This document shows positions 2,640 through 50,481 of a stretch of DNA of 64,000 nt, one piece after another; position 1 is the stretch's first letter, and each line of letters opens with the position of its first letter. A model generated the notes under the pieces. That model ran no database searches and was not told the DNA's origin. It saw only the letters and a program-made list of their open reading frames with translations. The position numbers and the translations under genes were made by a program. Source of the DNA: Bacteroidales bacterium (GTDB lineage Bacteria; Bacteroidota; Bacteroidia; Bacteroidales; SZUA-534); NCBI GenBank assembly GCA_045640185.1, contig JAZUEN010000085.1:3525-67524 (forward strand). Reading direction: 5' to 3'.

Positions 2640-3509
2640 ATGGAAATTGTATTGTACAGTGTAATCGCTTTAGGCTTGCTTGGATTGGTGCTGGCTGCCA
2701 TTCTGTATGTAGTGGCCCAAAAGTTCAAGGTACAAGAAGACCCACGCATTGACGAAATTGCGGCACTGCTGCCTGGAGCCAACTGTGGTGGCTGTGGCTA
2801 CCCTGGATGTCGGGGATTGGCAAGTGCCTTGGTGTCGGCTACCGACATAAGCGGCATGAAATGTCCAGCATCAAGTGCCGAAGTAATGCGGCAGATAGGG
2901 ACAATCCTTGGACAGGAAGTAACCGAAACAGAGCCCAAAATAGCCGTAGTGCGTTGCAACGGAACATGCCAAAACCGACAAACCGTCAACAAGTATGACG
3001 GAGCCGACTCATGCGCATTCGCATCAATGCTATATGCAGGCGACACAAACTGCAGTTTCGGATGTCTGGGCCATGGTGATTGCGTAGCCGCCTGCAAATT
3101 CGACGCCATCAGCATCAACCCTAACACCGGATTGCCAATTGTCGACGAGACAAAATGCGTTGCCTGCGGAGCCTGCGCAAAGGCATGTCCGAAAGGCATC
3201 ATCGAACTGCGCAACCGTGGCAAGAAAGACCGACGCCTGTTTGTATCGTGCGTGAACAAGGACAAGGGCGCAGTTGCCCGCAAGGCCTGCACAGCAGCCT
3301 GCATCGGATGCGGAAAATGCACCAAAGTATGCGCTTTTGAAGCCATCACCGTTGAAAACAACGTGGCATACATCGATTTTGAAAAATGCAAGATGTGCCG
3401 CAAGTGCGCAGCCGAATGCCCTACTGGTGCCATTCACGAAGTAAACTTCCCTCCGCGCCCACCAAAGAGCGAGGCCACAGAAGAAAAAACTGTACAAACA
3501 AACGCATAG
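2640..3509 (+). CDS. rnfB: Rnf electron-transport complex subunit B (polyferredoxin)
   Basis: N-terminal TM helix, CGGCGYPGC motif, and several CxxCxxCxxxCP ferredoxin motifs (CVACGACAKACP, CKMCRKCAAECP). Confidence 0.9.
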   Translation: MEIVLYSVIALGLLGLVLAAILYVVAQKFKVQEDPRIDEIAALLPGANCGGCGYPGCRGLASALVSATDISGMKCPASSAEVMRQIGTILGQEVTETEPKIAVVRCNGTCQNRQTVNKYDGADSCAFASMLYAGDTNCSFGCLGHGDCVAACKFDAISINPNTGLPIVDETKCVACGACAKACPKGIIELRNRGKKDRRLFVSCVNKDKGAVARKACTAACIGCGKCTKVCAFEAITVENNVAYIDFEKCKMCRKCAAECPTGAIHEVNFPPRPPKSEATEEKTVQTNA

Positions 3510-3520
3510 ACCACTGAAAT

Positions 3521-4852
3521 ATGTTCAAGACATTCAAAATAGGCGGTGTGCATCCCGAAGCCAACAAACTTTCGGCCGCAAAACCAATTGAAGATGCACA
3601 ATTGCCAAAAGTTGCCATCATACCATTGGGGCAACACATTGGCGCACCTGCCACTGCCGTTGTCCAAAAAGGCGACGTTGTCAAAGTTGGGCAACTGATT
3701 GGCCAGGCCAACGGTTTCGTATCGGCAAACATACACTCGTCTGTATCAGGAACCGTAGCGAAGGTTGAAGATGCCGTTGATGTGTCAGGATTCAAGAAAC
3801 CAGCCGTATACATCAATGTTGAAGGCGACGAATGGCTCGACAACATCGACCGCACCGATAAACTTGTTTCCGAAATAAAGGACGATGCCAAGACTATCAT
3901 CGGCAAGATAAAAGACGCCGGCATAGTTGGCATGGGCGGAGCGACATTCCCCGCTCACGTAAAACTGTCAATTCCCGATGGAAAGAAAGCCGACTTCCTG
4001 ATTATCAACGGTGTGGAATGCGAACCGTACCTTACGGCAGACCACAGGCTGATGCTCGAGAAAAGCCAGGAGCTGATTGTAGGCATCAAGATTCTGATGC
4101 GCGCCATCAACGTTGACAAGGCATACATCGGAATTGAAGCCAACAAGCCAGATGCAATCAGCAAACTGACAGAGTTGTGCAAATCAGAGCAAGGCATTGA
4201 AGTTGTGCCACTCAAGTTGAAATATCCGCAAGGCGGCGAGAAGCAACTCATAAACGCAGTTTCAGGCCGCGAAGTGCCTTCAGGCAAACTGCCAATAGAT
4301 GCCGGCGCCGTAGTGCAAAACGTGGGCACCGCATTTGCTGTATATGAGGCGGTGCAGAAGAACAAGCCACTAATAGAGCGTATCGTGACTGTGACAGGCA
4401 AGAACGTCAAAAATCCGTCGAACTTCAAGGCTCGCATCGGCACGCCAATAATCGACTTGATAAACGCAGCCGGTGGCGACACCGAAAACAGCGGAAAGAT
4501 AATAAGTGGCGGCCCGATGATGGGAAAGGCAATGTCGAACCTAGACTCTACAATAACAAAGGGCACATCAGGATTGCTCCTTATGAATGAGGAAGATGCT
4601 GTCCGTCCCGAAGCTGGACCGTGCATCCGCTGCGCGAAATGCGTTGACGCATGCCCCATGGGACTTGAGCCCTATCTGCTGATGCAATACAGCCAACGCC
4701 AAATGTGGGCCGAAGATGAAGCTAACCACATCATGGATTGTATCGAATGCGGCTGTTGCATTTTCTCTTGCCCGGCAAACCGTCCAATCCTGGACTATGT
4801 GCGCTTAGGCAAAAACACTGTTGGTAAAATAATCCGTTCAAGAAAACAATAA
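3521..4852 (+). CDS. rnfC: Rnf complex subunit C
   Basis: 443 aa with GMGGATFP (NADH/FMN-binding-like) and two 4Fe-4S motifs (CIRCAKCVDACP, CIECGCCIFSCP), in operon position after rnfB. Confidence 0.9.
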   Translation: MFKTFKIGGVHPEANKLSAAKPIEDAQLPKVAIIPLGQHIGAPATAVVQKGDVVKVGQLIGQANGFVSANIHSSVSGTVAKVEDAVDVSGFKKPAVYINVEGDEWLDNIDRTDKLVSEIKDDAKTIIGKIKDAGIVGMGGATFPAHVKLSIPDGKKADFLIINGVECEPYLTADHRLMLEKSQELIVGIKILMRAINVDKAYIGIEANKPDAISKLTELCKSEQGIEVVPLKLKYPQGGEKQLINAVSGREVPSGKLPIDAGAVVQNVGTAFAVYEAVQKNKPLIERIVTVTGKNVKNPSNFKARIGTPIIDLINAAGGDTENSGKIISGGPMMGKAMSNLDSTITKGTSGLLLMNEEDAVRPEAGPCIRCAKCVDACPMGLEPYLLMQYSQRQMWAEDEANHIMDCIECGCCIFSCPANRPILDYVRLGKNTVGKIIRSRKQ

Positions 4853-5811
4853 TGGGACAATTAGTAGTATCACCATCGCCACACACTCGCAGCGGTGTTT
4901 CAACCCCGAACCTGATGTTCGGAGTAATTGTGGCATTAATGCCAGCGCTAGCCGTTTCCGTCCTATATTTCGGAATTGGCTCGCTTATAGTGACATTCAC
5001 ATCAGTAGCAAGCTGCGTACTGTTTGAGTATCTAATCCAAAAATTCCTGCTGAAGCAAAAGCCGACCATTTGCGACGGCTCAGCAATACTTACCGGCTTG
5101 CTGCTGGCATTCAACCTGCCTTCAAACTTGCCGATAGGGATTGTCATTGCCGGTGCCGCATTCTCGATTGGAGTAGTAAAAATGGCATTCGGCGGACTTG
5201 GCCAGAACCTTTTCAACCCAGCGATAGGCGGACGCATTTTCCTTCTGATATCGTTCCCCGTGCAAATGACAACGTGGCCAGTGCCCAACGGCTTGGCTAC
5301 AAGTTATGTCGATGCCGCAACAGGCGCCACATCGCTTGCAATGATGAAAAACCACTTCGGCACTCTGCCTTGCACTACCGACATGTTTCTAGGCCAAATG
5401 GGTGGTAGTCTTGGCGAAGTTTCCGCATTGGCACTGCTCATCGGTTTTGCATACCTGCTTTATAGGCGAATAATAACCTGGCACATACCGGTAACCATAT
5501 TCGCAACCGTATTCGTTTTCCAGGGAATACTATATTTAGCTAATGCAGAACAATTTGCATCGCCAGTTGCACATCTTCTTGCTGGAGGCTTGATGCTTGG
5601 CGCAATATTCATGGCGACAGACTATGTGACATCGCCAATGAGCGTTCCGGGCAAGATAGTATATGCCATAGGAATAGGTGTGATAACCGTCATTATCAGG
5701 AACTTCGGTTCGTTCCCTGAAGGCGTCTCCTTCGCAATTCTGATTATGAACGCCTTTACGCCTATCATCAACACTTACATTAAACCTAAACGATTTGGGG
5801 AGGTAAAATAA
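4852..5811 (+). CDS. rnfD: Rnf complex subunit D
   Basis: Polytopic NqrB/RnfD-like protein (SPSPH.. N-terminus, TGATSLA, MATDYVTSP). Its start overlaps the rnfC stop. Confidence 0.9.
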   Translation: MGQLVVSPSPHTRSGVSTPNLMFGVIVALMPALAVSVLYFGIGSLIVTFTSVASCVLFEYLIQKFLLKQKPTICDGSAILTGLLLAFNLPSNLPIGIVIAGAAFSIGVVKMAFGGLGQNLFNPAIGGRIFLLISFPVQMTTWPVPNGLATSYVDAATGATSLAMMKNHFGTLPCTTDMFLGQMGGSLGEVSALALLIGFAYLLYRRIITWHIPVTIFATVFVFQGILYLANAEQFASPVAHLLAGGLMLGAIFMATDYVTSPMSVPGKIVYAIGIGVITVIIRNFGSFPEGVSFAILIMNAFTPIINTYIKPKRFGEVK

Positions 5812-6491
5812 TGGCACAAAAGGAATCATCACTCAAGAACATGTTGCTTGCGCTGACCGTGATAGCGCTTGTGGCATCTGGCCTAATGGCATTGATGTAC
5901 AACGTCACATCAGAGCCGATAGCAAAATCGAAAGAGCAGAAATCGGTTGACGCAATAAAAGCCGTACTTCCAGATTTCGACAAGATAGAAAACGACACGG
6001 CCAACGACCTTGCAATATTCAAGGCATACAATGCCAATGGCGATTTTATTGGAGCTGCAGTCGAGTCGTACTCAAACAATGGCTTTGGCGGACAGATAAA
6101 GGTCATGGTCGGATTTGACGCCAACGGCAACATAACCGAATATTCGGTATTGGACCAAAAGGAGACTCCCGGACTTGGCACCAAAATGGTAAGCTGGTTC
6201 CGTCCGCAAGAGGCAAAAGAAAAGAGCCTGCTCGAAAAGGCTTTTGGATTTGAAGTCAAGTCGGCCGAAAAGCAAAGCTCAATTATCGGCAAGAACCCTG
6301 CGGTCAACAACATGACTGTATCAAAAGACGGTGGCGAGATAGACGCAATAACAGCATCGACAATCAGTTCAAGAGCCTTTCTAGAATCGATTCGCACAGC
6401 CTACAACGCATACGCCGCAGCCAACAACCAAAAGACAACCGATGCCAATTCTGGCGCAACTCAAACAGTGGAGGGCAACGACAATGAATAA
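5811..6491 (+). CDS. rnfG: Rnf complex subunit G (FMN-binding)
   Basis: N-terminal TM anchor, ETPGLG and the FMN-attachment context DAITASTISS. Its start overlaps the rnfD stop. Confidence 0.85.
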   Translation: MAQKESSLKNMLLALTVIALVASGLMALMYNVTSEPIAKSKEQKSVDAIKAVLPDFDKIENDTANDLAIFKAYNANGDFIGAAVESYSNNGFGGQIKVMVGFDANGNITEYSVLDQKETPGLGTKMVSWFRPQEAKEKSLLEKAFGFEVKSAEKQSSIIGKNPAVNNMTVSKDGGEIDAITASTISSRAFLESIRTAYNAYAAANNQKTTDANSGATQTVEGNDNE

Positions 6492-7071
6492 CAATCTTAA
6501 AGTACTGCTAAACGGTCTGATTAAGGAAAACCCGACATTTGTACTGCTGTTGGGAATGTGCCCTACCCTTGGCACGACATCATCAGCCATAAACGGAATG
6601 AGCATGGGATTGGCAACGACATTTGTGCTAATCTGCTCAAACATAGCCATATCGCTCATCAAAAACTTTATTCCGGACAAAGTGCGCATACCAGCATACG
6701 TTGTGGTAATTGCAGCTTTTGTGACAATTGTGGAGATGGTCATGCAAGCCTACGTGCCTGCACTTTACGCCACATTGGGTCTGTTCATCCCGCTGATTGT
6801 GGTAAACTGCATCGTGCTAGGCCGTGCTGAAGCATTTGCCGCAAAGAACCCTGTCATACCATCACTTTTCGATGGTCTGGGAATCGGTCTTGGCTTCACA
6901 TGCGCACTAACACTGCTGGGCTGCATCCGCGAACTGCTCGGGACCGGCAAGGTTTTCAGCTGCGCCATCTATCCTGAAAACTACGGAATGCTGCTGTTTG
7001 TCTTGGCACCTGGCGCATTCATTGCCTTGGGGTTTCTTATCGCACTAGTCAACAAATTACGCAAATCATAA
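6484..7071 (+). CDS. rnfE: Rnf complex subunit E
   Basis: The ATG at 6484 (MNNNLKVLLNGL..) overlaps the rnfG stop by 8 nt. It is preferred over the track start at 6442, which lies inside rnfG. NqrD/RnfE-like polytopic sequence. Confidence 0.85.
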   Translation: MNNNLKVLLNGLIKENPTFVLLLGMCPTLGTTSSAINGMSMGLATTFVLICSNIAISLIKNFIPDKVRIPAYVVVIAAFVTIVEMVMQAYVPALYATLGLFIPLIVVNCIVLGRAEAFAAKNPVIPSLFDGLGIGLGFTCALTLLGCIRELLGTGKVFSCAIYPENYGMLLFVLAPGAFIALGFLIALVNKLRKS

Positions 7072-7084
7072 AAAGAGCTGAACC

Positions 7085-7660
7085 ATGGAATACTTACTGA
7101 TGTTTATAGCGGCTGTATTTGTAAACAATATCGTACTGTCGCAATTTTTAGGCATTTGCCCATTTCTGGGTGTATCAAAAAAGATTGGCACAGCCCTTGG
7201 AATGGCAGGCGCCGTCGCATTTGTACTTGTCCTTGCAACTATAGTCACATACTTGGCGAACTCGTGCATATTGGTCCCATTCGGGCTTGAATATATGCGC
7301 ACCATCACCTACATCCTGATTATTGCCACATTGGTGCAAATGGTTGAAATAGTGCTAAAAAAGGCTTCGCCAGCGCTCTACTCCGCTTTGGGCGTATTTC
7401 TTCCGCTAATCACGACAAACTGCTGCATATTGGGTGTGGCGTTGCTGGTAATACAAAAGGATTTCAGCCTATTGGAAAGCGTTGTATATGCATTTTCAAA
7501 CGCCATAGGTTTCGGATTTGCATTGGTTCTGTTTGCCGGCCTGCGTGAGCAGCTAAACCTTTCAAACACACCAAAAGCGATGCGCGGCATGCCTATTGCT
7601 CTTGTAACAGCAGGCATTTTGGCCATGGCATTCATGGGATTCTCCGGCTTGGTGAAATAA
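7085..7660 (+). CDS. rnfA: Rnf complex subunit A
   Basis: 191-aa polytopic NqrE/RnfA-like protein (NNIVLSQFLGICPFLGVS). Last gene of the operon. Confidence 0.9.
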   Translation: MEYLLMFIAAVFVNNIVLSQFLGICPFLGVSKKIGTALGMAGAVAFVLVLATIVTYLANSCILVPFGLEYMRTITYILIIATLVQMVEIVLKKASPALYSALGVFLPLITTNCCILGVALLVIQKDFSLLESVVYAFSNAIGFGFALVLFAGLREQLNLSNTPKAMRGMPIALVTAGILAMAFMGFSGLVK

Positions 7661-7750: not shown

Positions 7751-7786
7751 ACGACAAAGGCTGTCAGTATTGGCAGCCTTTGTCGT
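7751..7786 (+). terminator. hairpin terminator after rnfA
   Basis: Perfect 13-bp inverted repeat acgacaaaggctg / cagcctttgtcgt with a 10-nt loop. The trailing T-run is weak. Confidence 0.6.
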
Positions 7787-7920: not shown

Positions 7921-10248
7921 ATGAAACTCAACATTCGCTCAAAAATCAGTCTATTTGTGCTGATTCCAATGTCGGCATACATAATTTTTCTAATCACATT
8001 CGTTGGCGTACGTACAACCAATCAGGCAGAATTCGATTCAGGGCACACAAGCCGTCTGCTCTCGGAGCGAACAGCCTGCCATGCAGAAATTGTCATCAAC
8101 GAGCATAAAGCAAGCATAAAAATGATGTCAGACGCATTATCGTTTCAGACACCAACCATGGACGACGGGCAACGCACCTTGTTCCGCCAAACCTTGGCGA
8201 ACGTGGCACAAGGCCAAAAATGCTGGGCACTGATCATGTCTGGCTTCTATGCCGACACTAACTACACCGATGGCGAATGGGTGCTGCTTCAGCCAAACGC
8301 AAACGGCAGCATTTCAGTCACCGACAACCAAAGTTTCATCCAAAGCAAATATGGCGAAATACTAAACTCATCAACCACTTCACTATACGAGCCTTACGAG
8401 TATGGCGACAAATTGCTGCTGAACATCAGCACTCCAATTTACCAAAGCGGCAACATCTGCGGTTTTGCCTGCAAAGCCATCAACATTGACGACTTCGACC
8501 TGCTCGCAAAAAAAGTCGTAAAGCAATTCAACGACGAAGTAACAAAGCACATTGTCAGCAGCAAAGGCACTGTAATTTACTCAAGCAACCCTAACGATGT
8601 CAACCAGAAGTTCTCACTCGGCTGTGAAGACAGCGTAAGCGCCAAGCAGCTTCTCGACAAAATGAACAAAGGCGAGTACATAACAAACATATTCAACAAA
8701 GATGGTTCAAGACTAAACACATACTTTACCCCTATCAATATAGGGACAAACTGTTACTGGTCGCTAGCGCTGACATTTCCGCTGACAAACATTTCGCAGA
8801 CGGCACTGGACACATTGTCAAAATCGTTGCTGGTAGCCATCATCGGACTGATACTAATGATAGTCTTGGTGCTTTGGATTGCAAAAAGCATTACAGTGCC
8901 TATCAGAAGCACCACCAAAGCCCTACACCTTTTGGCTTTAGGCGACACCGAAAGCATCCAGACACTGGACATCAAGACAAATGACGAACTTGAAGAAATG
9001 TCAAAATCGCTCAATCAGGTTGTTGACGGCATGCGCAAGTCTGAAACATTTGCCTTAAACATTGGAGAAGAAAACTTCGACAGCGACTTTCAAACTTTAA
9101 GCGACAAAGACCGCCTGGGCGACGCCTTGATAAAGATGCGCGACAACTTGAGCAAGAGCAAGGAAATTGAAGCAAAACGCAAGGAAGAGGAAGAACTGCG
9201 GAATTGGGCTACTGAAGGCATTGCAAAATTTGCAGAAATTCTCCGCAAAGACCAAGACAACCTTAAATCATTAAGCTACAACATCATGTCGCATTTGATT
9301 GATTACCTGAATGTCAATCAAGGCGCCTTGTTTGTAATAAACAACGACAACGATGAAGAAACCGTATTTTCAATGACCGCCGCCATTGCCTACGGAAGAG
9401 ACAAGTGCATCAACCGCGACATCAAGATTGGCGAAGGCCTGATTGGCCGTTGCGTCTACGAGCGCAAAACCATATACATCACCAAGGTTCCCGACGACTA
9501 TGTGCAAATAACATCTGGCCTGGGGAATGCGAATCCAAGTTGTGTGCTAATTGTACCTTGCTCACTTAACGAAGAGGTATATGGCGTAATTGAAATTGCC
9601 TCGTTTGAAGAACTCAAGCCTTACGAAATCGAATTCGTCGAAAAACTGGGCGAAAGCATAGCATCAACAATAGCAAGCGTAAAAGTCACTGAAAAGACCA
9701 ACAAACTGCTAAAGGCAAGCCAAATACAACGCGAAGAGCTATCATCGCAAGAAGAGGAATTGAGGCAAAACCTGGAGGAAATGCAAGCCACTCAAGAAGA
9801 CCTTCGCCGGCAAATGGATGAAAACCAAGAGATGAAGGACAACCTGTCGAAAGAAATTGGCCTGATGAACTCACTGATGGACAACATTCACGACTACATC
9901 TACTTCAAGGACTTGGAAGGCAAATTCATACGAGTCTCAAAATCTTACCTGCGGTGCGCCGATGTCGACTCCTATGATGATGTCATCGGCAAGAGCGACT
10001 TCGATCTATGCGCTATACAAAGCGAGGCTCAGCGCTACTTCGACGATGAGCAGCGAATCATAAAGACAAAGAAGCCAATACTGAACCAGATACAATGTGA
10101 ACACCGTCACGACACAACTATCTACACATCGACATCAAAATATCCGCTATACGATAGCTACGGCAACGTGATCGGCACATTTGGCCTGACATCAGAAGTC
10201 ACCAACTCGATTTTGGCAAAAGGTTCTGCCGTAAACAAAGAACAATAG
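7921..10248 (+). CDS. transmembrane sensor: extracytoplasmic (Cache-like?) domain-HAMP-GAF-coiled coil-PAS, with no recognisable output domain
   Basis: The ATG at 7921 gives MKLNIRSKISLFVLIP.. (TM1), with TM2 at LLVAIIGLILMIVLVLWIA. The HAMP-like linker is LALGDT..NDELEEMSKSLNQVVDGMRKSE and the GAF-like block is RNWATEGIAKF..NQGALFV..GEGLIG..IASF. The coiled coil is EEELRQNLEEMQATQEDL and the PAS-like end is IYFKDL..VIGKSDFDLC..GNVIGTFGLT. The track start at 7894 is a TTG. Confidence 0.75.
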   Translation: MKLNIRSKISLFVLIPMSAYIIFLITFVGVRTTNQAEFDSGHTSRLLSERTACHAEIVINEHKASIKMMSDALSFQTPTMDDGQRTLFRQTLANVAQGQKCWALIMSGFYADTNYTDGEWVLLQPNANGSISVTDNQSFIQSKYGEILNSSTTSLYEPYEYGDKLLLNISTPIYQSGNICGFACKAINIDDFDLLAKKVVKQFNDEVTKHIVSSKGTVIYSSNPNDVNQKFSLGCEDSVSAKQLLDKMNKGEYITNIFNKDGSRLNTYFTPINIGTNCYWSLALTFPLTNISQTALDTLSKSLLVAIIGLILMIVLVLWIAKSITVPIRSTTKALHLLALGDTESIQTLDIKTNDELEEMSKSLNQVVDGMRKSETFALNIGEENFDSDFQTLSDKDRLGDALIKMRDNLSKSKEIEAKRKEEEELRNWATEGIAKFAEILRKDQDNLKSLSYNIMSHLIDYLNVNQGALFVINNDNDEETVFSMTAAIAYGRDKCINRDIKIGEGLIGRCVYERKTIYITKVPDDYVQITSGLGNANPSCVLIVPCSLNEEVYGVIEIASFEELKPYEIEFVEKLGESIASTIASVKVTEKTNKLLKASQIQREELSSQEEELRQNLEEMQATQEDLRRQMDENQEMKDNLSKEIGLMNSLMDNIHDYIYFKDLEGKFIRVSKSYLRCADVDSYDDVIGKSDFDLCAIQSEAQRYFDDEQRIIKTKKPILNQIQCEHRHDTTIYTSTSKYPLYDSYGNVIGTFGLTSEVTNSILAKGSAVNKEQ

Positions 10249-10301
10249 CGCATAGCCAATGACGCAACCATTTGACAGAAAATCTAAATAATAAATACGC
10301 A

Positions 10302-12626
10302 ATGAAAATAAAACTAAACATCAAGTCGAAAATTCTTCTTTATGTTCTTGGCCCAATCTCCTTGTTCATCATATTCCTGATATTGTTTGTCGGCATAAGG
10401 AACGCATCCCGCGCCACAACAAACGCTGAAGATTTGATCAAGCAAGTTGCCAAGACACAAAGCGCAAATGCCTCATCAATACTGAGCAAATACGTGTCAA
10501 GCGTCAATTCGTTGGCAAACGCCTTCAGCGGAGAAGCCGACTACCTGGAAGAAAACCAACGCGAAGTTTTCGGCAACGTCCTTTTCAATATGGCTAATGC
10601 GACAAACAGCGACATGTGGGTGATTTGGAACTCGGAATTCTATGCCGACAGCAACCACATGGAGCGTGAATGGATCTTGCTGCAGCCAGCAAACGGCATT
10701 GCAAGAGTCAACGACGTCACTTTCGAATTCGAGTCCAGATTCGGCAGCTGCCTTGAGACGTCAAAGACTACCGTCTCCCCATCGTACGAATTTGAAGGCA
10801 ACTGGAGGATGAACATCACCTGTCCTATCTTCCAAAACGGCAACATTTGCGGTTTTGCCGGCATAACAATACCAAATTCGGAATTTGATCCGGTAACAAC
10901 TGAAAAGACATTTGAGGAAACTCAGATATACGTTGTCAATCAAGAAGGGAAATGCATTCTATCGAATGCCCAGTCATCGCCATCCGATTATTTCACATTT
11001 AGTGGCGACACCACTAACCTTGACAAGTTCAAGGTGATGATTGCAAATGGAGACTTCACATCAAAGACACTGATGATAAACGACCAAAAGACATTCACCG
11101 TAATGTCGCCTGTCAAAGTTGACGGAATCAAGAATTGGGCCGTTGGCATCAGTCTGGCTATCGACAATGTAACCAAAAGCGAGATGCACTCGCTATACAT
11201 ATCAATACTGGCGGCAATCATTGGCTTGTTAACCATCTGCATAATAGTGATTGTTGTCGCACGTGGCATCACCAACCCTATCAAGTTGACAACCGATGCC
11301 CTAAAAGTACTTGCATTAGGCGACACGGGGAACATCAACACTCTGACCGTCAATACAAACGACGAACTTGAAGACATGTCAAAATCACTGAATCAAGTGG
11401 TTGAAGGAATGCGAAAATCGGAATCGTTTGCCTTGGACATTGGCAATGGCAAATTCGAAAGCGAATTCAAAACCCTTAGCGACAAAGACCGGCTAGGCGG
11501 TGCATTGATAAAGATGCGCGAGAACCTTCTTGAAAACCAGAAAAGCGAGACCGCACGAAAGGAAGAAGAGGAATTGCGCAATTGGGCAACCGAAGGCATT
11601 GCAAAATTTGGCGAAATTCTCCGCAAGGACCAAAACAACATGAAGTCGTTGGGCTACAATATCATGTCGAACCTTATCGATTACCTAAAAGTTAGCCAAG
11701 GTGCCCTATTTGTCGTAAACAACGACGACGAAAACGACATCTACTTTTCACTAGTCACAGCCATTGCATATGGTCGCGACAAATACATAAAGAAAGACAT
11801 CCGCGAAGGCGAAGGCCTTGTGGGGCATTGCATATACGAGCGCAAGACCATCTACCTCACCGACATTCCTGACGACTACATGAGGATTACATCGGGACTA
11901 GGCACGGCCAACCCAAAATGCATACTGATTGTTCCTTGCGTGCTGAACAACGAAATATTCGGCATAATTGAAATAGCATCATTCACCGAACTCAAGCCAT
12001 ACGAAATCGAATTCGTCGAGAAACTGGGCGAAAGCATCGCTTCAACTGTCGCCAGCGTAAAGGTTACCGAAAAGACCAACAAGCTACTGCAGGCCAGCCA
12101 GGAACAAAGCTCCGAACTCACTTCAAGAGAAGAGGAACTTCGGCAGAACCTTGAGGAAATGCAGGCCACCCAAGAAGACCTCCACCGCCAAGTTGAAGAA
12201 AACCAGAAGATGAAAGACGAACTCGGCAAGGAAAAGAGCCTGCTCGACTCTCTGATGGAGACGGTCAACGATACAATATATTTCAAGGACCTAGACAGCA
12301 AGCTTATCCGAGTGTCACGTTCATTCCTAAACACAGTGGAACTTCCCACTTACGAAGATGTCATAGGCAAGACCGATTTCGACCTTTGCTCCGACATGAA
12401 CGAGGCCCAAAAATTCTACGACGAGGAACAGCGCATCATCAAAACCAGAAAGCCGTTGCTCAACCAAGTTCAAGAAGAGCACCGACATGGCAGCATAATA
12501 TATGTATCAACATCGAAATATCCACTTATTGATGCAAATGGTAACGTAATTGGAACATTCGGACTAACCACCGACGTCACCAACACCATAAAAAAGAAGA
12601 AAGAAATGGATGATGAAGAAAAATGA
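10302..12626 (+). CDS. paralogous transmembrane sensor with the same architecture (extracytoplasmic domain-HAMP-GAF-coiled coil-PAS)
   Basis: ATG at 10302 (MKIKLNIKSKILLYVLGP..). The cytoplasmic half is collinear with the previous gene and mostly identical. It lies 53 nt downstream of that gene with no hairpin between. The track start at 10272 is a TTG. Confidence 0.75.
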   Translation: MKIKLNIKSKILLYVLGPISLFIIFLILFVGIRNASRATTNAEDLIKQVAKTQSANASSILSKYVSSVNSLANAFSGEADYLEENQREVFGNVLFNMANATNSDMWVIWNSEFYADSNHMEREWILLQPANGIARVNDVTFEFESRFGSCLETSKTTVSPSYEFEGNWRMNITCPIFQNGNICGFAGITIPNSEFDPVTTEKTFEETQIYVVNQEGKCILSNAQSSPSDYFTFSGDTTNLDKFKVMIANGDFTSKTLMINDQKTFTVMSPVKVDGIKNWAVGISLAIDNVTKSEMHSLYISILAAIIGLLTICIIVIVVARGITNPIKLTTDALKVLALGDTGNINTLTVNTNDELEDMSKSLNQVVEGMRKSESFALDIGNGKFESEFKTLSDKDRLGGALIKMRENLLENQKSETARKEEEELRNWATEGIAKFGEILRKDQNNMKSLGYNIMSNLIDYLKVSQGALFVVNNDDENDIYFSLVTAIAYGRDKYIKKDIREGEGLVGHCIYERKTIYLTDIPDDYMRITSGLGTANPKCILIVPCVLNNEIFGIIEIASFTELKPYEIEFVEKLGESIASTVASVKVTEKTNKLLQASQEQSSELTSREEELRQNLEEMQATQEDLHRQVEENQKMKDELGKEKSLLDSLMETVNDTIYFKDLDSKLIRVSRSFLNTVELPTYEDVIGKTDFDLCSDMNEAQKFYDEEQRIIKTRKPLLNQVQEEHRHGSIIYVSTSKYPLIDANGNVIGTFGLTTDVTNTIKKKKEMDDEEK

Positions 12627-12657
12627 AAAAAGGGACTTGCAAGTCCCTTTTTTTTTT
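12626..12657. terminator. strong Rho-independent terminator (A-run/hairpin/T-run, potentially bidirectional)
   Basis: aaaaa agggact tgca agtccct ttttttttt immediately after the stop of the second sensor. Confidence 0.85.
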
Positions 12658-42621: not shown

Positions 42622-44610
42622 TCAACCTTTTTGGTAATTGATTGCCATTTCTGCAATTTTTGCCATAACCTCGTCTTGACCTGTTGTGTTGATGACAAGG
42701 TCATATACACGTTCTATGTCTCCCAACTGATTTACATATGGGGTAAACGTATGTGAGAATTTCATTTCCAGGCCTTGGAAATCTGTCTTAACGTCATAAA
42801 CCACACTTTCACCCGACAATACTCTTTCCCAAGTCTCGTTAAATCTATCCTTATCGTCTGACGATGTTGCGTATAGGTCGGCAAACTTCATCCCGACAAA
42901 TTCCGTAATATCGACTCTTGACAGTTGCAACATCTTGTCGTTTACAGAAATGATGGTTCCCGACAAGTCAATATCAATTGTACCAAGTGTATTGTTTATG
43001 GCATCTATGGCCAAGCGCATCTCTGCTTCACGACGAGACGCTTCTTCCTGCGTAGCTTGCATCTCCTCCATATTTTGGCGAAGTTCCTCTTCCTGCGACG
43101 AAAGCTCCTCGCTGCGAGTCTTTGATTCCGCAAGCAGCTTGCCTGTCTGCTCGTTTATTCTGACACTGGAAATCGTTGAAGCTATATTTTCGCCAAGCGT
43201 CTGCAAGAAGTCAATTTGATGCTGAGGAATCTCGTTAAACGATGCCAACTCGATGACGCCAAGCACGGTGTCGTTGATGACCAACGGAACGAGCAGCAGA
43301 TAGTTTGGTTCCGCGCCACCCAAACCTGAAGTCAGTCGGATATATTCTTCCGGTATTTCCTTTAGGTAAACCGGCAATTTTTCAAATGCGCAACGGCCGA
43401 CAAGGCCTTCTGTCAATTCAAAATTGACCTTTAGATATTTTTCGCGATTGTATGCAACAGCACTCTTCATTTCGAAGAATTGGTTGGTTTCATCCTGTTC
43501 GTTCAATATATATATGGCACCCTGATTGACTCCTAAGTAATCGATCAAATGGCGCATGACATTGCTTGACAGCATTTCCATGTTTTCGGAATTATGTCGC
43601 AATATGTCGCCAAAATCTGCAAGACCCTTTGTTGTCCAGTTTCTGATTTCGTCTTCTTTCTGGCGTTTCTTGTTTGCTTCGTCAGAAATGCTCAAATTCT
43701 TGCGCATTTCAAGCAAGGCATTGCCTAAAATGTCTTCCTCGCCCAATGACTCATACTCGGAACCATAATTTCCCCTTCCTATCTCCACGGCAAACTCTGA
43801 AGTCTTGCGCAACGAATCGATGAATCCGTTCAAAGCATCGCCCATGTCACCGATTTCGTCATTTTGTGTCACCAGCTTTTCATTAGGCAAAATACCCTTT
43901 GTCATTGTAAGCAGGAACTCCTTCAGTTTATAGACAGGAACGACTATGCTTCGTATTGTAAGCATACTTACTATCAATACGATTACAACAATTATCAAGA
44001 CTGAATACACCACGAAACTTTGGAACCAAGCAAAAGATGCCTCCATTTTATTATTGGCAGCTTCCGCTTTTTTTGACATCACTGCCGTCAAAGCCTCTAT
44101 CTCTGCCAAGATGTTATCGGTTTGAACCATGACCTCGCCACCATCTTCAACCATCATCTCGTATTCCAATTTAACTATACCTTCATAGTCATCGAATGTA
44201 ACAAGAGACAGCATTATTTCCTGATGAACCATAAAAAGGGTATCACTTATGCCAGAAAATATCGTTTCCAAAGCTTTCCGTTCACTTTCGTCCCAATGCT
44301 CTGAGATAGACATCAACTCATTGTGTAATTTCGGATACTGCACATCATGCATATTCTTCAACTTATTCTTTTCTTGGGTTTCTTTCATTTCGCTGACCCA
44401 GTGCCGTATCAACATTCGTGAATTTGTAATCATGGTATTGCAATCCTGCAGGCCAGACATGGACGGATTATATACGTTCATAATGTCATCGTTCAGCTTT
44501 CTATTCGCATTTGATGTTGAATATGTCACTAAACCATTGATGATTACAACTAGAAGAAGTGAGCCGAAGCCAATAAGAAGTTTATTGGAAATTGTTAAAC
44601 GAGCATTCAT
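42622..44610 (-). CDS. third paralogue of the output-less sensor: TM-helical extracytoplasmic domain-TM-HAMP-GAF-coiled coil-PAS
   Basis: The ATG at 44610 (MNARLTISNKLLIGFGSLLLVVII..) is preferred, because the TTG track start at 44637 lies inside the promoter motif. IRNWTTKGLADFGDILR..NQGAIYIL..TEGLVG..LASF and EELSSQEEELRQNMEEMQATQEE are collinear with the genes at 7921 and 10302. The protein ends after a PAS-like block. Confidence 0.7.
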   Translation of the reverse strand: MNARLTISNKLLIGFGSLLLVVIINGLVTYSTSNANRKLNDDIMNVYNPSMSGLQDCNTMITNSRMLIRHWVSEMKETQEKNKLKNMHDVQYPKLHNELMSISEHWDESERKALETIFSGISDTLFMVHQEIMLSLVTFDDYEGIVKLEYEMMVEDGGEVMVQTDNILAEIEALTAVMSKKAEAANNKMEASFAWFQSFVVYSVLIIVVIVLIVSMLTIRSIVVPVYKLKEFLLTMTKGILPNEKLVTQNDEIGDMGDALNGFIDSLRKTSEFAVEIGRGNYGSEYESLGEEDILGNALLEMRKNLSISDEANKKRQKEDEIRNWTTKGLADFGDILRHNSENMEMLSSNVMRHLIDYLGVNQGAIYILNEQDETNQFFEMKSAVAYNREKYLKVNFELTEGLVGRCAFEKLPVYLKEIPEEYIRLTSGLGGAEPNYLLLVPLVINDTVLGVIELASFNEIPQHQIDFLQTLGENIASTISSVRINEQTGKLLAESKTRSEELSSQEEELRQNMEEMQATQEEASRREAEMRLAIDAINNTLGTIDIDLSGTIISVNDKMLQLSRVDITEFVGMKFADLYATSSDDKDRFNETWERVLSGESVVYDVKTDFQGLEMKFSHTFTPYVNQLGDIERVYDLVINTTGQDEVMAKIAEMAINYQKG

Positions 44611-44758: not shown

Positions 44759-45259
44759 CTAAAGCGCCATGTTGAGCAATTGTGTGCTTATTTGTAATTT
44801 TCGTTCGCTCGTCGCCTCTTTGTTGACCTCGAATTTGATTTTTCCGTCAATCACCTTGAAGTTTATGCAAGAGCCTTTTTCCAATGAACCCGAGCGTTCT
44901 GTCAGTATAAGAGTAGAAGTTCCTTGCAATTTCGAAGTCACCTCTTCCATTTTTGCCGCGCTACTCTCACTCGATGCCAAGAACAATATATGGCATTTTG
45001 GCAGTTCCTCAATAGATTTCAGTTTCAGCACTTCTATTGCTTGCGTACCCACTTTTTTCAGGTTTGTCAGGTCACGCAATTGATTATACACTTCACTGTT
45101 TCCAATAACGCATATTACAAAATTGCCACTTTTATCAGCAGCAGGCCATTCTATCTGCTTAGTGAAGTTATATGTATACAAGGCCTTGTATTTTGCTTCC
45201 TGAGCAAAACCAGCTGTTACGCTAACGATTGCAAAAACCACTAATAAAAAACGTTTCAT
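44759..45259 (-). CDS. YfiR-family (DUF4154) periplasmic protein
   Basis: A signal peptide, then YKALYTYNFTKQIEWP..NFVICVIG..CHILFLASSE..TLILTE..GSCINF..KIKFEVN..LQISTQLLNMA. This follows the YfiR/DUF4154 pattern closely. Confidence 0.75.
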   Translation of the reverse strand: MKRFLLVVFAIVSVTAGFAQEAKYKALYTYNFTKQIEWPAADKSGNFVICVIGNSEVYNQLRDLTNLKKVGTQAIEVLKLKSIEELPKCHILFLASSESSAAKMEEVTSKLQGTSTLILTERSGSLEKGSCINFKVIDGKIKFEVNKEATSERKLQISTQLLNMAL

Positions 45260-45547: not shown

Positions 45548-47674
45548 ATGGAAAAACATTTCATCAAGCATAGAGATTTATTTTTTGGCATCTGCGTTTC
45601 CTCCTTATTTGTGATTTTGCCGTTCATCTGGGCCGACAAGACAATGCTTGACGCATCACTACTCCCCCGCCAAGCCGCATTGTCAATCTTTTTATTGGCA
45701 ATGACGATATTCATAATTTCCCTATCAGGTAAATTCTCCATGACATTCGGAAAGCAGGAAAAGATAATCTTTGGCGGACTACTTATATTCATGGCCATGC
45801 ACATTGTTTCATGCATAAATGTCATAAACCGCCATGAAGCAATATTCCATATTGCAAAGGAATACATGTTCTGTCTATTCTTTTTCTACATATACCTCAT
45901 TCTCAGAGAATTCAGAAAAAACCGCGATATGTTGATAAAGACGGCACTAACCGCCAGCATCGTTTTTATTGCAATTGGGTACATACAACTTGTGAAATCG
46001 GATTTCAGCGATTTCCTTGCAGCAGAAGACCACCGTTCGTACTACTTCAACTTGGTAATGGACAATGTTTTTTCAACATGTTCCAACAAGAACCTGTTTG
46101 CGTCACTATTGTTCATAACCATTCCTTTTGCCTTATACACCCTGATCAGCAATCATGAGACTAGAAAATCAGCCATCGTATGGCGAACAATATCGGCCAT
46201 AACAATTGTAGCCAATGCGACATTGATTGTCCTACTAATGTCAAGGACCGTATTTGCGTCTATATTTTTGACATTAATGGCATTTGCAGCCATTTCATAC
46301 ATATATATATTCCGCATTAGCCCGGAAAAACATGGCACAAAGGTCTCCCCAAAAGCAAAGAAGATTTGTATAGTTGCTCCTATAGTTGTTGTTTTAGCTG
46401 CCATAATTTTTGTGCAATCAACCGACACCATATTGGAGAACACCATAAAAGAACGTATCGGGCTTACTTTTAACCCCGAAAAATATGGTTACCGCGACAA
46501 CGAGCACGGTGAATCATCAACAGCGATGAGAACAATCATATGGTCAAAAACTATCGAAATGGTTAAAGACCGTCCTATAGTTGGGCACGGAATTGGCCAA
46601 TGGCAAATCATTGTTCCCAAATATGGTGTTGACGAATTCGGTGAGAAACTAAGAAACGGCAACCAGACATTCCAACGCCCACACAACGATTATCTGTGGT
46701 TCGCTTCAGAATTGGGATTAATCGGATTGATTGGATACCTGATTTTCTACATAGGAATCATCTACATCTGTATTTGCAACATAAAGGAATCAAATGACAA
46801 GGACACCATAGTATTCAACATATTAGCCGTATCGGCGCTTATTGGTTGGATGGTCGTATACAATTTAGACTTTTCCCACGAAAGAATAGAACACAACATC
46901 ATGTATCTATCAATCGCAGCCATTGCGCTGTCCGACTACCATGCGGCACGAAGTAAAGACGACAAATGCGCATCAAAAGCCGGTTCAATATTAATATTGG
47001 CCGTTTGCGCAGGAATAAGCATTATCGGGACGTACCAATCGTACCAATACTACAAAGGGGAATCAAACGGAAGGTTGATATTGGAAAGGCACTATGCCCA
47101 CAAATGGGACCAAGTCATACAGCTGACAAACGACATCCATTCGCAACCATACACATTAAACAACTTTACAACTCCGATGCCATACTACAGAGGTGTCGCT
47201 TTTTCAATGAAAGGCGACCAAGAGTCGGCAATAAAGGAATTTGACAAGTGTATGCAGATACACCCCTACTGCATACTGAATTTTTGTTCGAAAGGAATTG
47301 CCCTCATTAAATCTGGCAAATATGACGAAGCCTTGGATTGTCTCAGCAACGCGCTTGCGATGTCGCCAAGATGCACCGACGCCTTATACAATACAGCGAT
47401 TTGCCATTTCAACAAAAAGGACATCAACAACGCTTTCCTGTACATAAACAAGATTCCTTTCGACGTCAAGGATAAGTCCGCCAGCTTTTATGAAACATAT
47501 CTGATGATATACAAAAAGATGGCACTTGAGAAGAAAGACATCTACAACCGGGACAATCTTGTGTCATGGATCAACGATGACAAGAAAGTGGCTAACACCA
47601 TTAAGAAATACCAAAAGGAGAATCGCTCCGACTTGAGCGAACTGCTACTTGAAGAGCTTGGTTCAAGCAATTAG
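45548..47674 (+). CDS. O-antigen-ligase-like (Wzy_C) polytopic membrane protein fused to a C-terminal TPR domain
   Basis: About 10-12 TM helices. A large loop carries FQRPHNDYLWFASELGLIGLIGY (Wzy_C-type motif). The C-terminal ~230 aa contain TPR-like repeats (..GDQESAIKEFDKCMQIHP.., ..GKYDEALDCLSNALAMSP..). Confidence 0.7.
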   Translation: MEKHFIKHRDLFFGICVSSLFVILPFIWADKTMLDASLLPRQAALSIFLLAMTIFIISLSGKFSMTFGKQEKIIFGGLLIFMAMHIVSCINVINRHEAIFHIAKEYMFCLFFFYIYLILREFRKNRDMLIKTALTASIVFIAIGYIQLVKSDFSDFLAAEDHRSYYFNLVMDNVFSTCSNKNLFASLLFITIPFALYTLISNHETRKSAIVWRTISAITIVANATLIVLLMSRTVFASIFLTLMAFAAISYIYIFRISPEKHGTKVSPKAKKICIVAPIVVVLAAIIFVQSTDTILENTIKERIGLTFNPEKYGYRDNEHGESSTAMRTIIWSKTIEMVKDRPIVGHGIGQWQIIVPKYGVDEFGEKLRNGNQTFQRPHNDYLWFASELGLIGLIGYLIFYIGIIYICICNIKESNDKDTIVFNILAVSALIGWMVVYNLDFSHERIEHNIMYLSIAAIALSDYHAARSKDDKCASKAGSILILAVCAGISIIGTYQSYQYYKGESNGRLILERHYAHKWDQVIQLTNDIHSQPYTLNNFTTPMPYYRGVAFSMKGDQESAIKEFDKCMQIHPYCILNFCSKGIALIKSGKYDEALDCLSNALAMSPRCTDALYNTAICHFNKKDINNAFLYINKIPFDVKDKSASFYETYLMIYKKMALEKKDIYNRDNLVSWINDDKKVANTIKKYQKENRSDLSELLLEELGSSN

Positions 47675-49569: not shown

Positions 49570-50073
49570 ATGAGTGAACTTGTAGAAATACTGAAATATG
49601 AAGGTGAAATCACCTTTGATAAGATAGAATACATTCTAACTCTTTTTAATCAAAACCTGCCTAACACAGTAAGCATGGTTTGCAAGACAAGGCTATTCTC
49701 CATTATGGTTGAATGCCTTGAGAATGCATATCGCCACAATTATCGGAGTCCAGAGCAAAACCCACAAATAAAAATTGAGCTGAACCAGAATGGCGACAAA
49801 ACAAGCCTAACTGTAGGAAACCTTATCAACAACAATGAACTACCTTCGTTGACAAACCGCATTGACGAGCTAAACTTGATGGATATAGCTGAAATAAAGA
49901 AGAAGTACAACGACACAATCAAGAAGACCCACATTTCGGAAAAAGGTGGAGCCGGCTTGGGTTTGCTGAAAATACTTCGAAGCACAAAAGAGCCATTAAA
50001 GTACAGTGTCACAAAAATAGACAATGACTGTTCGTTTATAAACATTACGATAACAATTACTGACAATAATTAA
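49570..50073 (+). CDS. SiaB-like GHKL-type protein kinase (RsbW/SpoIIAB-like)
   Basis: N-box-like ECLENAYRHN and G-box EKGGAGLGLLKI in a 167-aa protein. Lies directly upstream of a DUF1987 gene. Confidence 0.65.
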   Translation: MSELVEILKYEGEITFDKIEYILTLFNQNLPNTVSMVCKTRLFSIMVECLENAYRHNYRSPEQNPQIKIELNQNGDKTSLTVGNLINNNELPSLTNRIDELNLMDIAEIKKKYNDTIKKTHISEKGGAGLGLLKILRSTKEPLKYSVTKIDNDCSFINITITITDNN

Positions 50074-50079
50074 AGGCAT

Positions 50080-50481
50080 ATGGAAGCCATACACATTCAC
50101 GAGACAACCACATCTCCTGCCGTCATTTTCGACTTTGACAATGACATTTTCGAAATAACAGGATGCTCACGCCCAGAAGATGTAGTCGCTTTTTACGGCC
50201 AACTTGTCGATTGGCTTATCAACCTGAAAGACAACGTAACAGACGACCTGAAAATAGAGAGAGCAAACAAGCCTCTGGTATTTAAGCTATGCTACAACTA
50301 TTTCAACTCATCATCTGCAAAATACATTTTGGACATAATCCTGCTCATCGACGGACTATATAAGAAAGGGCTAAATGTCGTTATCGAATGGCAATACAAA
50401 AAAGACGATGACGACATGCTTGAAACTGGTGAAGAATTTACCGACCTGATCACATGTCCGCTGAAATTCATCGCCATATAG
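50080..50481 (+). CDS. DUF1987 / SiaC-like regulatory phosphoprotein
   Basis: TSPAVIFDFDNDIFEITGCSRPEDVVAFYGQLVDWL and ..YFNSSSAKYILDIILLI.. fit the DUF1987 pattern. 133 aa, starting 6 nt after the kinase gene. Confidence 0.7.
   Translation: MEAIHIHETTTSPAVIFDFDNDIFEITGCSRPEDVVAFYGQLVDWLINLKDNVTDDLKIERANKPLVFKLCYNYFNSSSAKYILDIILLIDGLYKKGLNVVIEWQYKKDDDDMLETGEEFTDLITCPLKFIAI

Follow-up and report, generated by a model that had tools for sequence, protein, structure and literature searches.

The stretch of DNA analysed here (the window) comprises 64,000 nucleotides of contig JAZUEN010000085.1 (assembly GCA_045640185.1) from a Bacteroidales bacterium, and the subject of this report is a tandem pair of open reading frames (ORFs) in it, ORF A and ORF B, which encode paralogous membrane receptors ending after a PAS domain. 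A preliminary description, made from the sequence alone, had read both proteins as a transmembrane (TM) segment, an ectodomain of about 270 residues, a second TM segment (TM2), and HAMP-like, GAF-like, coiled-coil and PAS-like parts. This reading has been borne out by Pfam profiles, AlphaFold models and Foldseek searches. The two genes and the parts of ORF B are as follows.

7921-10248, plus strand: ORF A, 775 amino acids; TM segment, dCache-like ectodomain, TM segment, HAMP domain, linker helix, GAF domain, connector helix, PAS domain, stop.
10302-12626, plus strand: ORF B, 774 amino acids; paralogue of ORF A with an architecture identical in kind.
10407-11171, plus strand: periplasmic double-Cache domain of ORF B, residues 36-290 (Pfam, model, Foldseek).
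11172-11636, plus strand: TM2, HAMP domain (residues 319-372) and helical linker (373-445) of ORF B (Pfam, model).
11637-12056, plus strand: GAF domain of ORF B, residues 446-585 (Pfam GAF_2, match to the GAF domain of PDB 5w10, model).
12057-12266, plus strand: connector helix of ORF B, residues 586-655, within the single helix 566-654 of the model.
12267-12626, plus strand: PAS domain (residues 656-762), short terminal helix (760-773) and stop of ORF B (PAS_4, model, Foldseek).

The ATG starts at 7921 and 10302 are backed by the N-termini of the aligned orthologues (MK[LI]KLNI...), and the gene calls of NCBI (contig of 67,855 bp) and ENA (contig of 97,821 bp) give identical products of 775 and 774 amino acids. 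The Pfam HAMP profile matches residues 319-372 with 25.8 bits in ORF A, at the cut-off, and with 23.1 bits in ORF B, about 2 bits under it. GAF_2 covers residues 449-584 approximately in both proteins at 48-52 bits, above the cut-off (52 bits in ORF B), and a PDB sequence search aligned this part of ORF B with the GAF domain of 5w10 (E 3e-4). PAS_4 matches residues 654-762 in both proteins at 32-37 bits, against a cut-off of 23.1 (36.6 bits in ORF B). The HAMP, GAF and PAS domains are assigned by profile and fold together, the HAMP of ORF B being slightly sub-threshold by profile.

Two AlphaFold models were used, one of full-length ORF B, with a mean predicted local distance difference test (pLDDT) score of 76, and one of its residues 600-774, with a mean pLDDT of 90.6. 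In the full-length model, a TM and stalk helix (residues 7-75) leads into two alpha/beta modules (104-191 and 208-286), followed by TM2 continuing into HAMP (287-381), a helix (397-441), the GAF fold (447-565), an unbroken helix of 89 residues (566-654), the PAS fold (658-758) and a terminal helix (760-773). The dCache_1 profile finds the ORF B ectodomain with E 1e-8 and 35 bits, below its cut-off of 45, which is exceeded by relatives. Foldseek retrieves the dCache ligand-binding domains of Tlp3, TlpA, TlpC, PctC/D and mmHK1S for this region, with target TM-scores of 0.65-0.75. As modelled, the ectodomain is of the dCache_1 type, with two PDC modules in tandem on a long stalk helix, flanked on either side by a TM segment. 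The C-terminal block is predicted in the second model to be a canonical PAS domain, for which the top Foldseek matches are VqmA, NifL, BvgS, the PASc domain of CitA and short LOV proteins. A PDB sequence search agrees with PAS, the match to VqmA being limited to the PAS domain of that protein. It was also asked whether this block is a known output domain or conceals a cryptic effector. Hidden Markov models, the PDB sequence search, the model and Foldseek rule out a hidden effector and return a plain PAS fold.

Scans of ORFs A and B against Pfam and NCBIfam (E<=1) gave no match to H-box/HATPase, GGDEF/EAL/HD-GYP, MCPsignal, SpoIIE, STAS or helix-turn-helix (HTH) profiles. Pfam places no domain after the PAS domain in either protein, where 12 residues remain, and NCBIfam yields partial matches only, to sensor parts of kinases and chemoreceptors; the match to CtpM is confined to TM2-HAMP. 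The parts that define the known receptor classes are likewise missing. The HisKA/H-box and HATPase_c domains of sensor histidine kinases are found neither by Pfam and NCBIfam nor in the C-terminal model, which consists of PAS alone, and the PF00015 hairpin by which methyl-accepting chemotaxis proteins (MCPs) bind CheA/CheW has no match in ORFs A and B. The GGDEF, EAL, HD-GYP and class III cyclase domains of cyclic-di-GMP and cyclic-nucleotide enzymes are absent from both proteins and from the relatives listed. ORF A, ORF B and a third family member in the window lack the C-terminal PP2C/SpoIIE domain of SiaA-type sensors, and Pfam and NCBIfam give no HTH or other DNA-binding match of the kind found in one-component regulators. 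In the GAF domain, catalytic cysteines like those of fRMsr were looked for by eye and rejected, the cysteine positions being different and not conserved in distant members. ORFs A and B genuinely lack an enzymatic or DNA-binding output and are complete receptors. The preliminary description had found no recognizable output module in either protein, with which the profile scans, both models and Foldseek agree, and knew of no characterized protein with such an architecture; a literature search found none either.

The ending itself is conserved. The preliminary description had both proteins stopping within about 20 residues of the PAS domain, and every one of 27 aligned sequences, down to 28% identity, ends 3-25 residues after the PAS core. 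As shown by the alignment and the family census, neither a kinase nor a cyclase follows in the orthologues, and truncation of a kinase is ruled out by the conserved stop and the census together. ORFs A and B are 53% identical overall. Their periplasmic domains are only 25% identical, whereas the HAMP, linker, GAF, connector and PAS parts reach 64-73% (69-73% across the TM2/HAMP/linker region), so that the cytoplasmic part is strongly constrained while the sensors have diverged.

The family to which these receptors belong is very large and essentially restricted to Bacteroidota, and thus no local oddity, a point absent from the preliminary description. Counted as representatives of 50%-identity clusters, a profile built from the 27 aligned sequences retrieved 10,879 entries at E<=1e-30 and, with the looser threshold of E<=1e-10, 78,861 (P-numbers below denote such representatives, L-numbers genome loci of relatives). 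Among the best 150 representatives, 64 terminate no more than 60 residues past the first PAS domain, and most of the longer ones carry extra PAS/GAF repeats; a hemerythrin seed matched 4 and a kinase seed 1 (P0198). Eight representatives with unexplained tails contain Cache, HAMP, GAF and PAS domains alone according to Pfam. Scanning species-representative genomes with the motif of the connector helix revealed at least 547 loci encoding relatives, nearly all in Bacteroidota. From 81 loci, 124 non-redundant homologue ORFs were obtained, 105 of them ending in PAS and 19 consisting of HAMP-GAF only. Seed matching detected hemerythrin in 4 of the 124, PP2C in 3, and a kinase or receiver domain in none. 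Two to four members lie side by side in 23 of the 81 loci, including one-strand arrays of four paralogues (L034:3042-12034, L042:7625-17288 and L055:5315-14377) and arrays of three (L020, L037, L041, L049, L052, L079 and L085).

Longer relatives were observed as well. In a sub-branch of the family (L021:1832-4738, P0045-P0048, P0148, P0156 and P0175), a hemerythrin domain follows the PAS domain and is possibly a module sensing O2 or iron rather than an output. Giant relatives of 2,000-2,400 amino acids (P0121, P0122, P0125, P0128, P0140, P0203 and P0214) seemingly consist only of GAF/PAS repeats, in which the connector motif occurs as many as six times; a search limited to kinase, receiver, PP2C and hemerythrin seeds gave no match in them.

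The most conserved element of the family lies in the helix between GAF and PAS. Its signature is A-Q-E-E-E-[ML]-R-Q-N-[ML]-E-E-[LM]-Q-A-T-Q-E-E (core EEE[LM]RQN[LM]EE[LM]QATQE), and most of its positions are 92-99% conserved in 436 distinct windows from 378 proteins. A charged coiled coil had been noted at this place and is present; its standing as a nearly invariant family signature had been missed. Both receptors carry the motif exactly.

12129-12179, plus strand: family motif EEELRQNLEEMQATQED in ORF B, residues 610-626, exact.
9751-9801, plus strand: family motif in ORF A, the same as that of ORF B, exact.

The third member of the family in the window likewise has an exact motif, EEELRQNMEEMQATQEE. 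In the heptad register that we infer, the three Glu pairs of the motif are heptad-spaced and occupy the outward-facing positions b and c.

ORFs A and B stand between two hairpins. The rnfBCDGEA region (2640-7660) lies upstream, with rnfB-A preceding ORF A, and a MatE gene follows the downstream hairpin.

7754-7785, plus strand: hairpin after rnfA with a 12-bp stem but lacking a T-run, located between the rnf operon and ORF A; the terminator scan does not report it.
12626-12653, unstranded: strong hairpin with flanking A/T runs directly behind ORF B, resembling an intrinsic terminator.

These flanks were found as previously described (an rnf terminator upstream, and a MATE pump gene behind a strong terminator downstream). 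In L006, the nearest relative with long flanks, a tandem receptor pair likewise follows rnf directly, and receptor genes come after rnf in several Salinivirgaceae, with three unrelated genes inserted between them in L001. Because of the separating hairpin and the L001 insertions, the proximity to rnf is taken as inherited synteny and not as a functional link. A partner among the adjacent genes was considered and rejected, since none of these genes (rnf, MatE, a metallo-beta-lactamase-fold protein, a CxxCxxCC protein, BatA, GltX and others) has a connection with signalling. The statement that no output is encoded beside the receptors holds for the adjacent genes; farther off, the window does contain genes of interest in this respect, namely a YfiR-like gene next to the third family member, and genes for SiaB and SiaC.

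42625-44610, minus strand: third family member, 662 amino acids; TM segment, helical ectodomain (faint 4HB_MCP), TM segment, HAMP-like part, GAF, connector, PAS, stop.
44762-45259, minus strand: gene of a YfiR/HmsC-like (DUF4154) periplasmic protein (Pfam E 5e-36), directly upstream of the third member.
49570-50073, plus strand: SiaB-like protein (DUF6272, HATPase-like), candidate Ser/Thr kinase of a partner switch (Pfam E 2e-27; PDB 6kko chain A, E 1.3e-7).
50080-50481, plus strand: SiaC-family regulatory phosphoprotein (DUF1987; Pfam E 2e-29; profile against PDB 6kko_C/6k4f, E 9e-26).

No output domain was found in the third member. Its pairing with a YfiR-like gene recurs for family members in Cytophagales and other Bacteroidota (L009, L010, L020, L054, L075, L084 and L093). 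The SiaB and SiaC genes lie about 5 kb beyond this pair and, judged by these matches, encode true homologues of the proteins in the Pseudomonas aeruginosa SiaB-SiaC complex 6kko. Neither a PP2C nor a diguanylate cyclase gene adjoins them, and in relatives (L093 and L097) they are consistently preceded by a pseudouridine synthase gene.

For a wider view of possible partners, all ORFs neighbouring family members were clustered across 87 loci. No universal neighbour emerged among them, and the neighbourhood comparison that had been proposed for finding a partner gave instead a recurrent candidate cluster in four genomes. The commonest cluster of neighbours outside the family consists of TPR proteins with a SpoIIE/PP2C phosphatase part, present at 18 of the 87 loci, or at 10 when a match to the phosphatase part is required; SiaC occurs within 10 kb in 7 loci. 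TPR-SpoIIE/PP2C genes encoding about 750 amino acids stand directly beside receptors in L018:7267-9564, L019, L031, L032 (which has three within 10 kb) and L068, from Rikenellaceae-like and other Bacteroidales metagenome-assembled genomes. The conserved cluster occupies the following stretches of four distant genomes.

L099:4637-13624
L080:9369-20703
L073:81-10241
L072:728-12286

The cluster starts with CheR (once also CheD), an output-less family member, and CheR and/or a stand-alone CheB methylesterase. It continues with a small membrane GAF protein, a GAF-PAS-PP2C protein of about 870 amino acids, SiaB and SiaC, and ends after SiaC with a PAS-rich hybrid kinase (L073 and L080) or a fused ABC-2 transporter (L072 and L099). 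In L073, L080 and L099 the family member shares the strand of the cluster and lies inside it; in L072 it is divergent and two genes off. CheA, CheW and MCPsignal proteins are missing from all four loci. The receptor of L099, with 722 amino acids, matches the family profile with E 1e-116 and carries the motif SEQEEEMRQNMEELKATQEE. The GAF-PAS-PP2C protein of the cluster also bears the connector motif of the family, within the same GAF-motif-PAS module, and belongs to a well conserved subfamily widespread in Bacteroidales (2,336 matches; among the 120 listed, identity is nowhere below 59%). A literature search found no description of the receptor family or of such a CheA-less CheR/CheB-PP2C cluster.

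These results are best read as follows: ORFs A and B are complete receptors of a large Bacteroidota family, have no output of their own and signal by contact, a reading to which a probability of about 0.55 is given. Contact signalling as such is probable. Since the orthologues have no kinase or cyclase and the proteins end in a plain PAS domain, contact with a partner, which the preliminary description had already proposed, is a reasonable inference now that the checks for output domains have come back empty. Binding of a ligand outside the cell would be relayed via HAMP and GAF, and along the long helix, to PAS; the output would then be an altered protein-protein contact made through the GAF-helix-PAS module. 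The diverged ectodomains, the conserved cytoplasmic module and the tandem arrays suggest a single shared partner on which numerous inputs act. As the class of this partner, a switch composed of a PP2C phosphatase, a SiaB kinase and a SiaC phosphoprotein is the leading, if tentative, candidate, because the four-genome cluster includes a PP2C protein that shares the receptor module and because SiaB and SiaC are also encoded in the window. Adaptation by CheR/CheB methylation of the invariant Glu-pair helix is a more doubtful addition, which comes from the presence of CheR and CheB (once CheD) beside the receptor in the clusters, where the heptad-spaced Glu pairs may be methylated.

A bolder view, and rather unlikely as a whole, would place the family in a chemosensory-like pathway of Bacteroidota without CheA and CheW. 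Receptors with variable ectodomains would share the GAF-helix-PAS transmitter, and CheR and CheB would tune them by methylating the Glu-pair helix. Each receptor would touch the GAF-PAS-PP2C protein via the homologous module, and the phosphatase would oppose the SiaB kinase over the phosphorylation of SiaC. The L099 cluster adjoins the gliding genes sprB and porP/sprF, and such a pathway might therefore steer gliding motility.

Several observations weigh against these proposals. ORFs A and B have no partner gene alongside, and no PP2C, CheR or CheB is encoded in the 64-kb window, so that the association with CheR/CheB seen for members in L072, L073, L080 and L099 is absent there. The Che/PP2C cluster itself was found in just 4 of about 90 loci, and TPR-PP2C genes are perhaps numerous, in which case some of their adjacency may be due to chance. 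Of three independent SiaC neighbourhoods used as a reciprocal test, two lack any family member inside 10 kb, and the remaining one is syntenic with the window. On the side of methylation, the MCP consensus [ASTG][ASTG]xx[EQ][EQ]xx[ASTG][ASTG] is present in full in just 2 of 424 connector windows; elsewhere it is reduced to half-sites (EExxAT, for instance), and Gln hardly ever takes the place of Glu in the pairs. Canonical MCP methylation sites were consequently rejected for the connector, where the consensus and the E/Q variation are both lacking. In MCPs, the second Glx of the consensus occupies heptad position c, and non-canonical sites are known (PMC6829392), so that the connector may yet be methylated. 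As for the missing adjacency, it is weak counter-evidence, because chemoreceptor genes are usually dispersed away from che operons.

An alternative that is improbable, yet survives best among those considered, makes the receptors co-sensors that form mixed dimers or other contacts, through GAF-helix-PAS, with a histidine kinase that contains a related module and is encoded at another site, and thereby modulate this kinase. RetS acts in this manner on GacS, and NifL on NifA. Among the 150 closest clusters, P0198 joins the module to a kinase seed match; NCBIfam gives local matches over the leucine-zipper/PAS part of ArcB; the hybrid kinase after SiaC in L073 and L080 is rich in PAS domains; and PAS-PAS contacts are frequent in the Foldseek matches, e.g., the NifL-NifA complex 9qq6. 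However, no kinase recurs beside family members in the 81 loci, the seeds used detected no kinase or receiver domain in the 64-kb window, and an ABC transporter takes the place of the hybrid kinase in L072 and L099.

Still less probable is a partnerless receptor in which GAF and PAS are the working end, either as a sink for a small molecule (nucleotide, metabolite or cofactor) or as an inside-out regulator of the Cache domain. The closest solved PAS relatives do bind ligands, VqmA binding DPO and NifL flavin adenine dinucleotide (FAD), and some relatives end in hemerythrin, another sensing module. However, D663, G689 and G747 are the only PAS positions invariant across the family, which argues against one conserved cofactor, and the invariant helix together with the clustering of CheR, CheB and PP2C points to a relay; we know of no precedent for such a mechanism. 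The reading of ORFs A and B as truncated or decaying kinase or cyclase genes, functionless and pseudogene-like, could draw on the bare absence of an output domain and nothing else, and is refuted by conservation, with the stop kept across the 27 sequences, the paralogues far more alike in the cytoplasmic part than in the ectodomain, thousands of clusters sharing the ending, the reading frames intact and a terminator directly behind ORF B.

Among known systems, the window receptors resemble chemoreceptors most in function, and their context resembles that of SiaA-type sensors, although the defining part of each known class is missing. Like MCPs of the dCache type (e.g., Tlp3, PctA-C and McpB), they have a TM-dCache-TM-HAMP arrangement with a structurally matching ectodomain. 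Neither group has a catalytic domain of its own, and in each the numerous paralogues vary in the sensor and keep the cytoplasmic part; the grouping of a family member with CheR/CheB genes in four genomes and the heptad-spaced Glu pairs on a long helix add to the likeness. They differ from MCPs in having GAF-helix-PAS instead of the MCPsignal hairpin, in clusters devoid of CheA/CheW and in the lack of the canonical methylation consensus. In Pseudomonas, how far SiaC is phosphorylated depends on two enzymes, the PP2C phosphatase SiaA and the kinase SiaB, and SiaC goes on to bind its target (PMC7647112, PMC8457831). The SiaABC(D) system of P. aeruginosa is similar in that a membrane HAMP sensor acts on the phosphorylation state of SiaC by way of PP2C and SiaB, that the window encodes homologues of SiaB and SiaC, and that some relatives combine the receptor module with PP2C in one protein, with SiaB and SiaC encoded next. 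It differs in that the window receptors have no PP2C, that no SiaD diguanylate cyclase was seen, and that in the clusters sensor and phosphatase are separate proteins with CheR/CheB added. For the third member, paired with a YfiR/HmsC-like gene, the YfiB-YfiN-YfiR (TpbB) system offers a parallel, in which YfiR represses the membrane HAMP protein YfiN (PMC4655355); YfiN, however, terminates in GGDEF and the third member in PAS.

By analogy, a terminal PAS domain acting as output has precedents in XccBphP and in short LOV proteins. XccBphP, which is among the Foldseek matches of the full-length model, has a GAF domain, a long helix and a terminal PAS without an enzyme domain; the alignment has a very large root mean square deviation and does not speak for homology outside the domains that both possess. 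Bacteriophytochromes differ in being soluble PAS-GAF-PHY proteins with bilin and without membrane, Cache and HAMP parts. One with a C-terminal PAS, RpBphP1, binds the repressor PpsR2. The short LOV proteins PpSB1-LOV, PpSB2-LOV and W619_1 share the PAS core, an N-terminal helix, a J-alpha-like C-terminal helix and the lack of an effector. They are stand-alone flavin photoreceptors, in contrast to ORFs A and B, where no LOV flavin signature is evident, though no formal test was made.

To our knowledge, signalling in Bacteroidota is poorly understood beyond hybrid two-component systems and extracytoplasmic function (ECF) sigma factors, and the phylum is usually described as being without chemotaxis machinery. 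Thousands of output-less receptors with an invariant helix, at times encoded in a conserved cluster with CheR/CheB and a PP2C/SiaB/SiaC switch, offer concrete and testable access to what may be a new relay mechanism. Two cultured species, Draconibacterium orientale (L072) and Perlabentimonas gracilis (L058), have members of the family, which makes genetics and biochemistry feasible. Even the modest reading, if true, would establish a new and large class of accessory sensors, together with a diagnostic motif by which to annotate them.

Among the other genes of the window, the one at 45548-47671, divergent from the YfiR-like gene, encodes a membrane protein of 708 amino acids in which a Wzy_C (O-antigen ligase-like) domain is fused to TPR repeats, and this arrangement is kept in L093 and L094.

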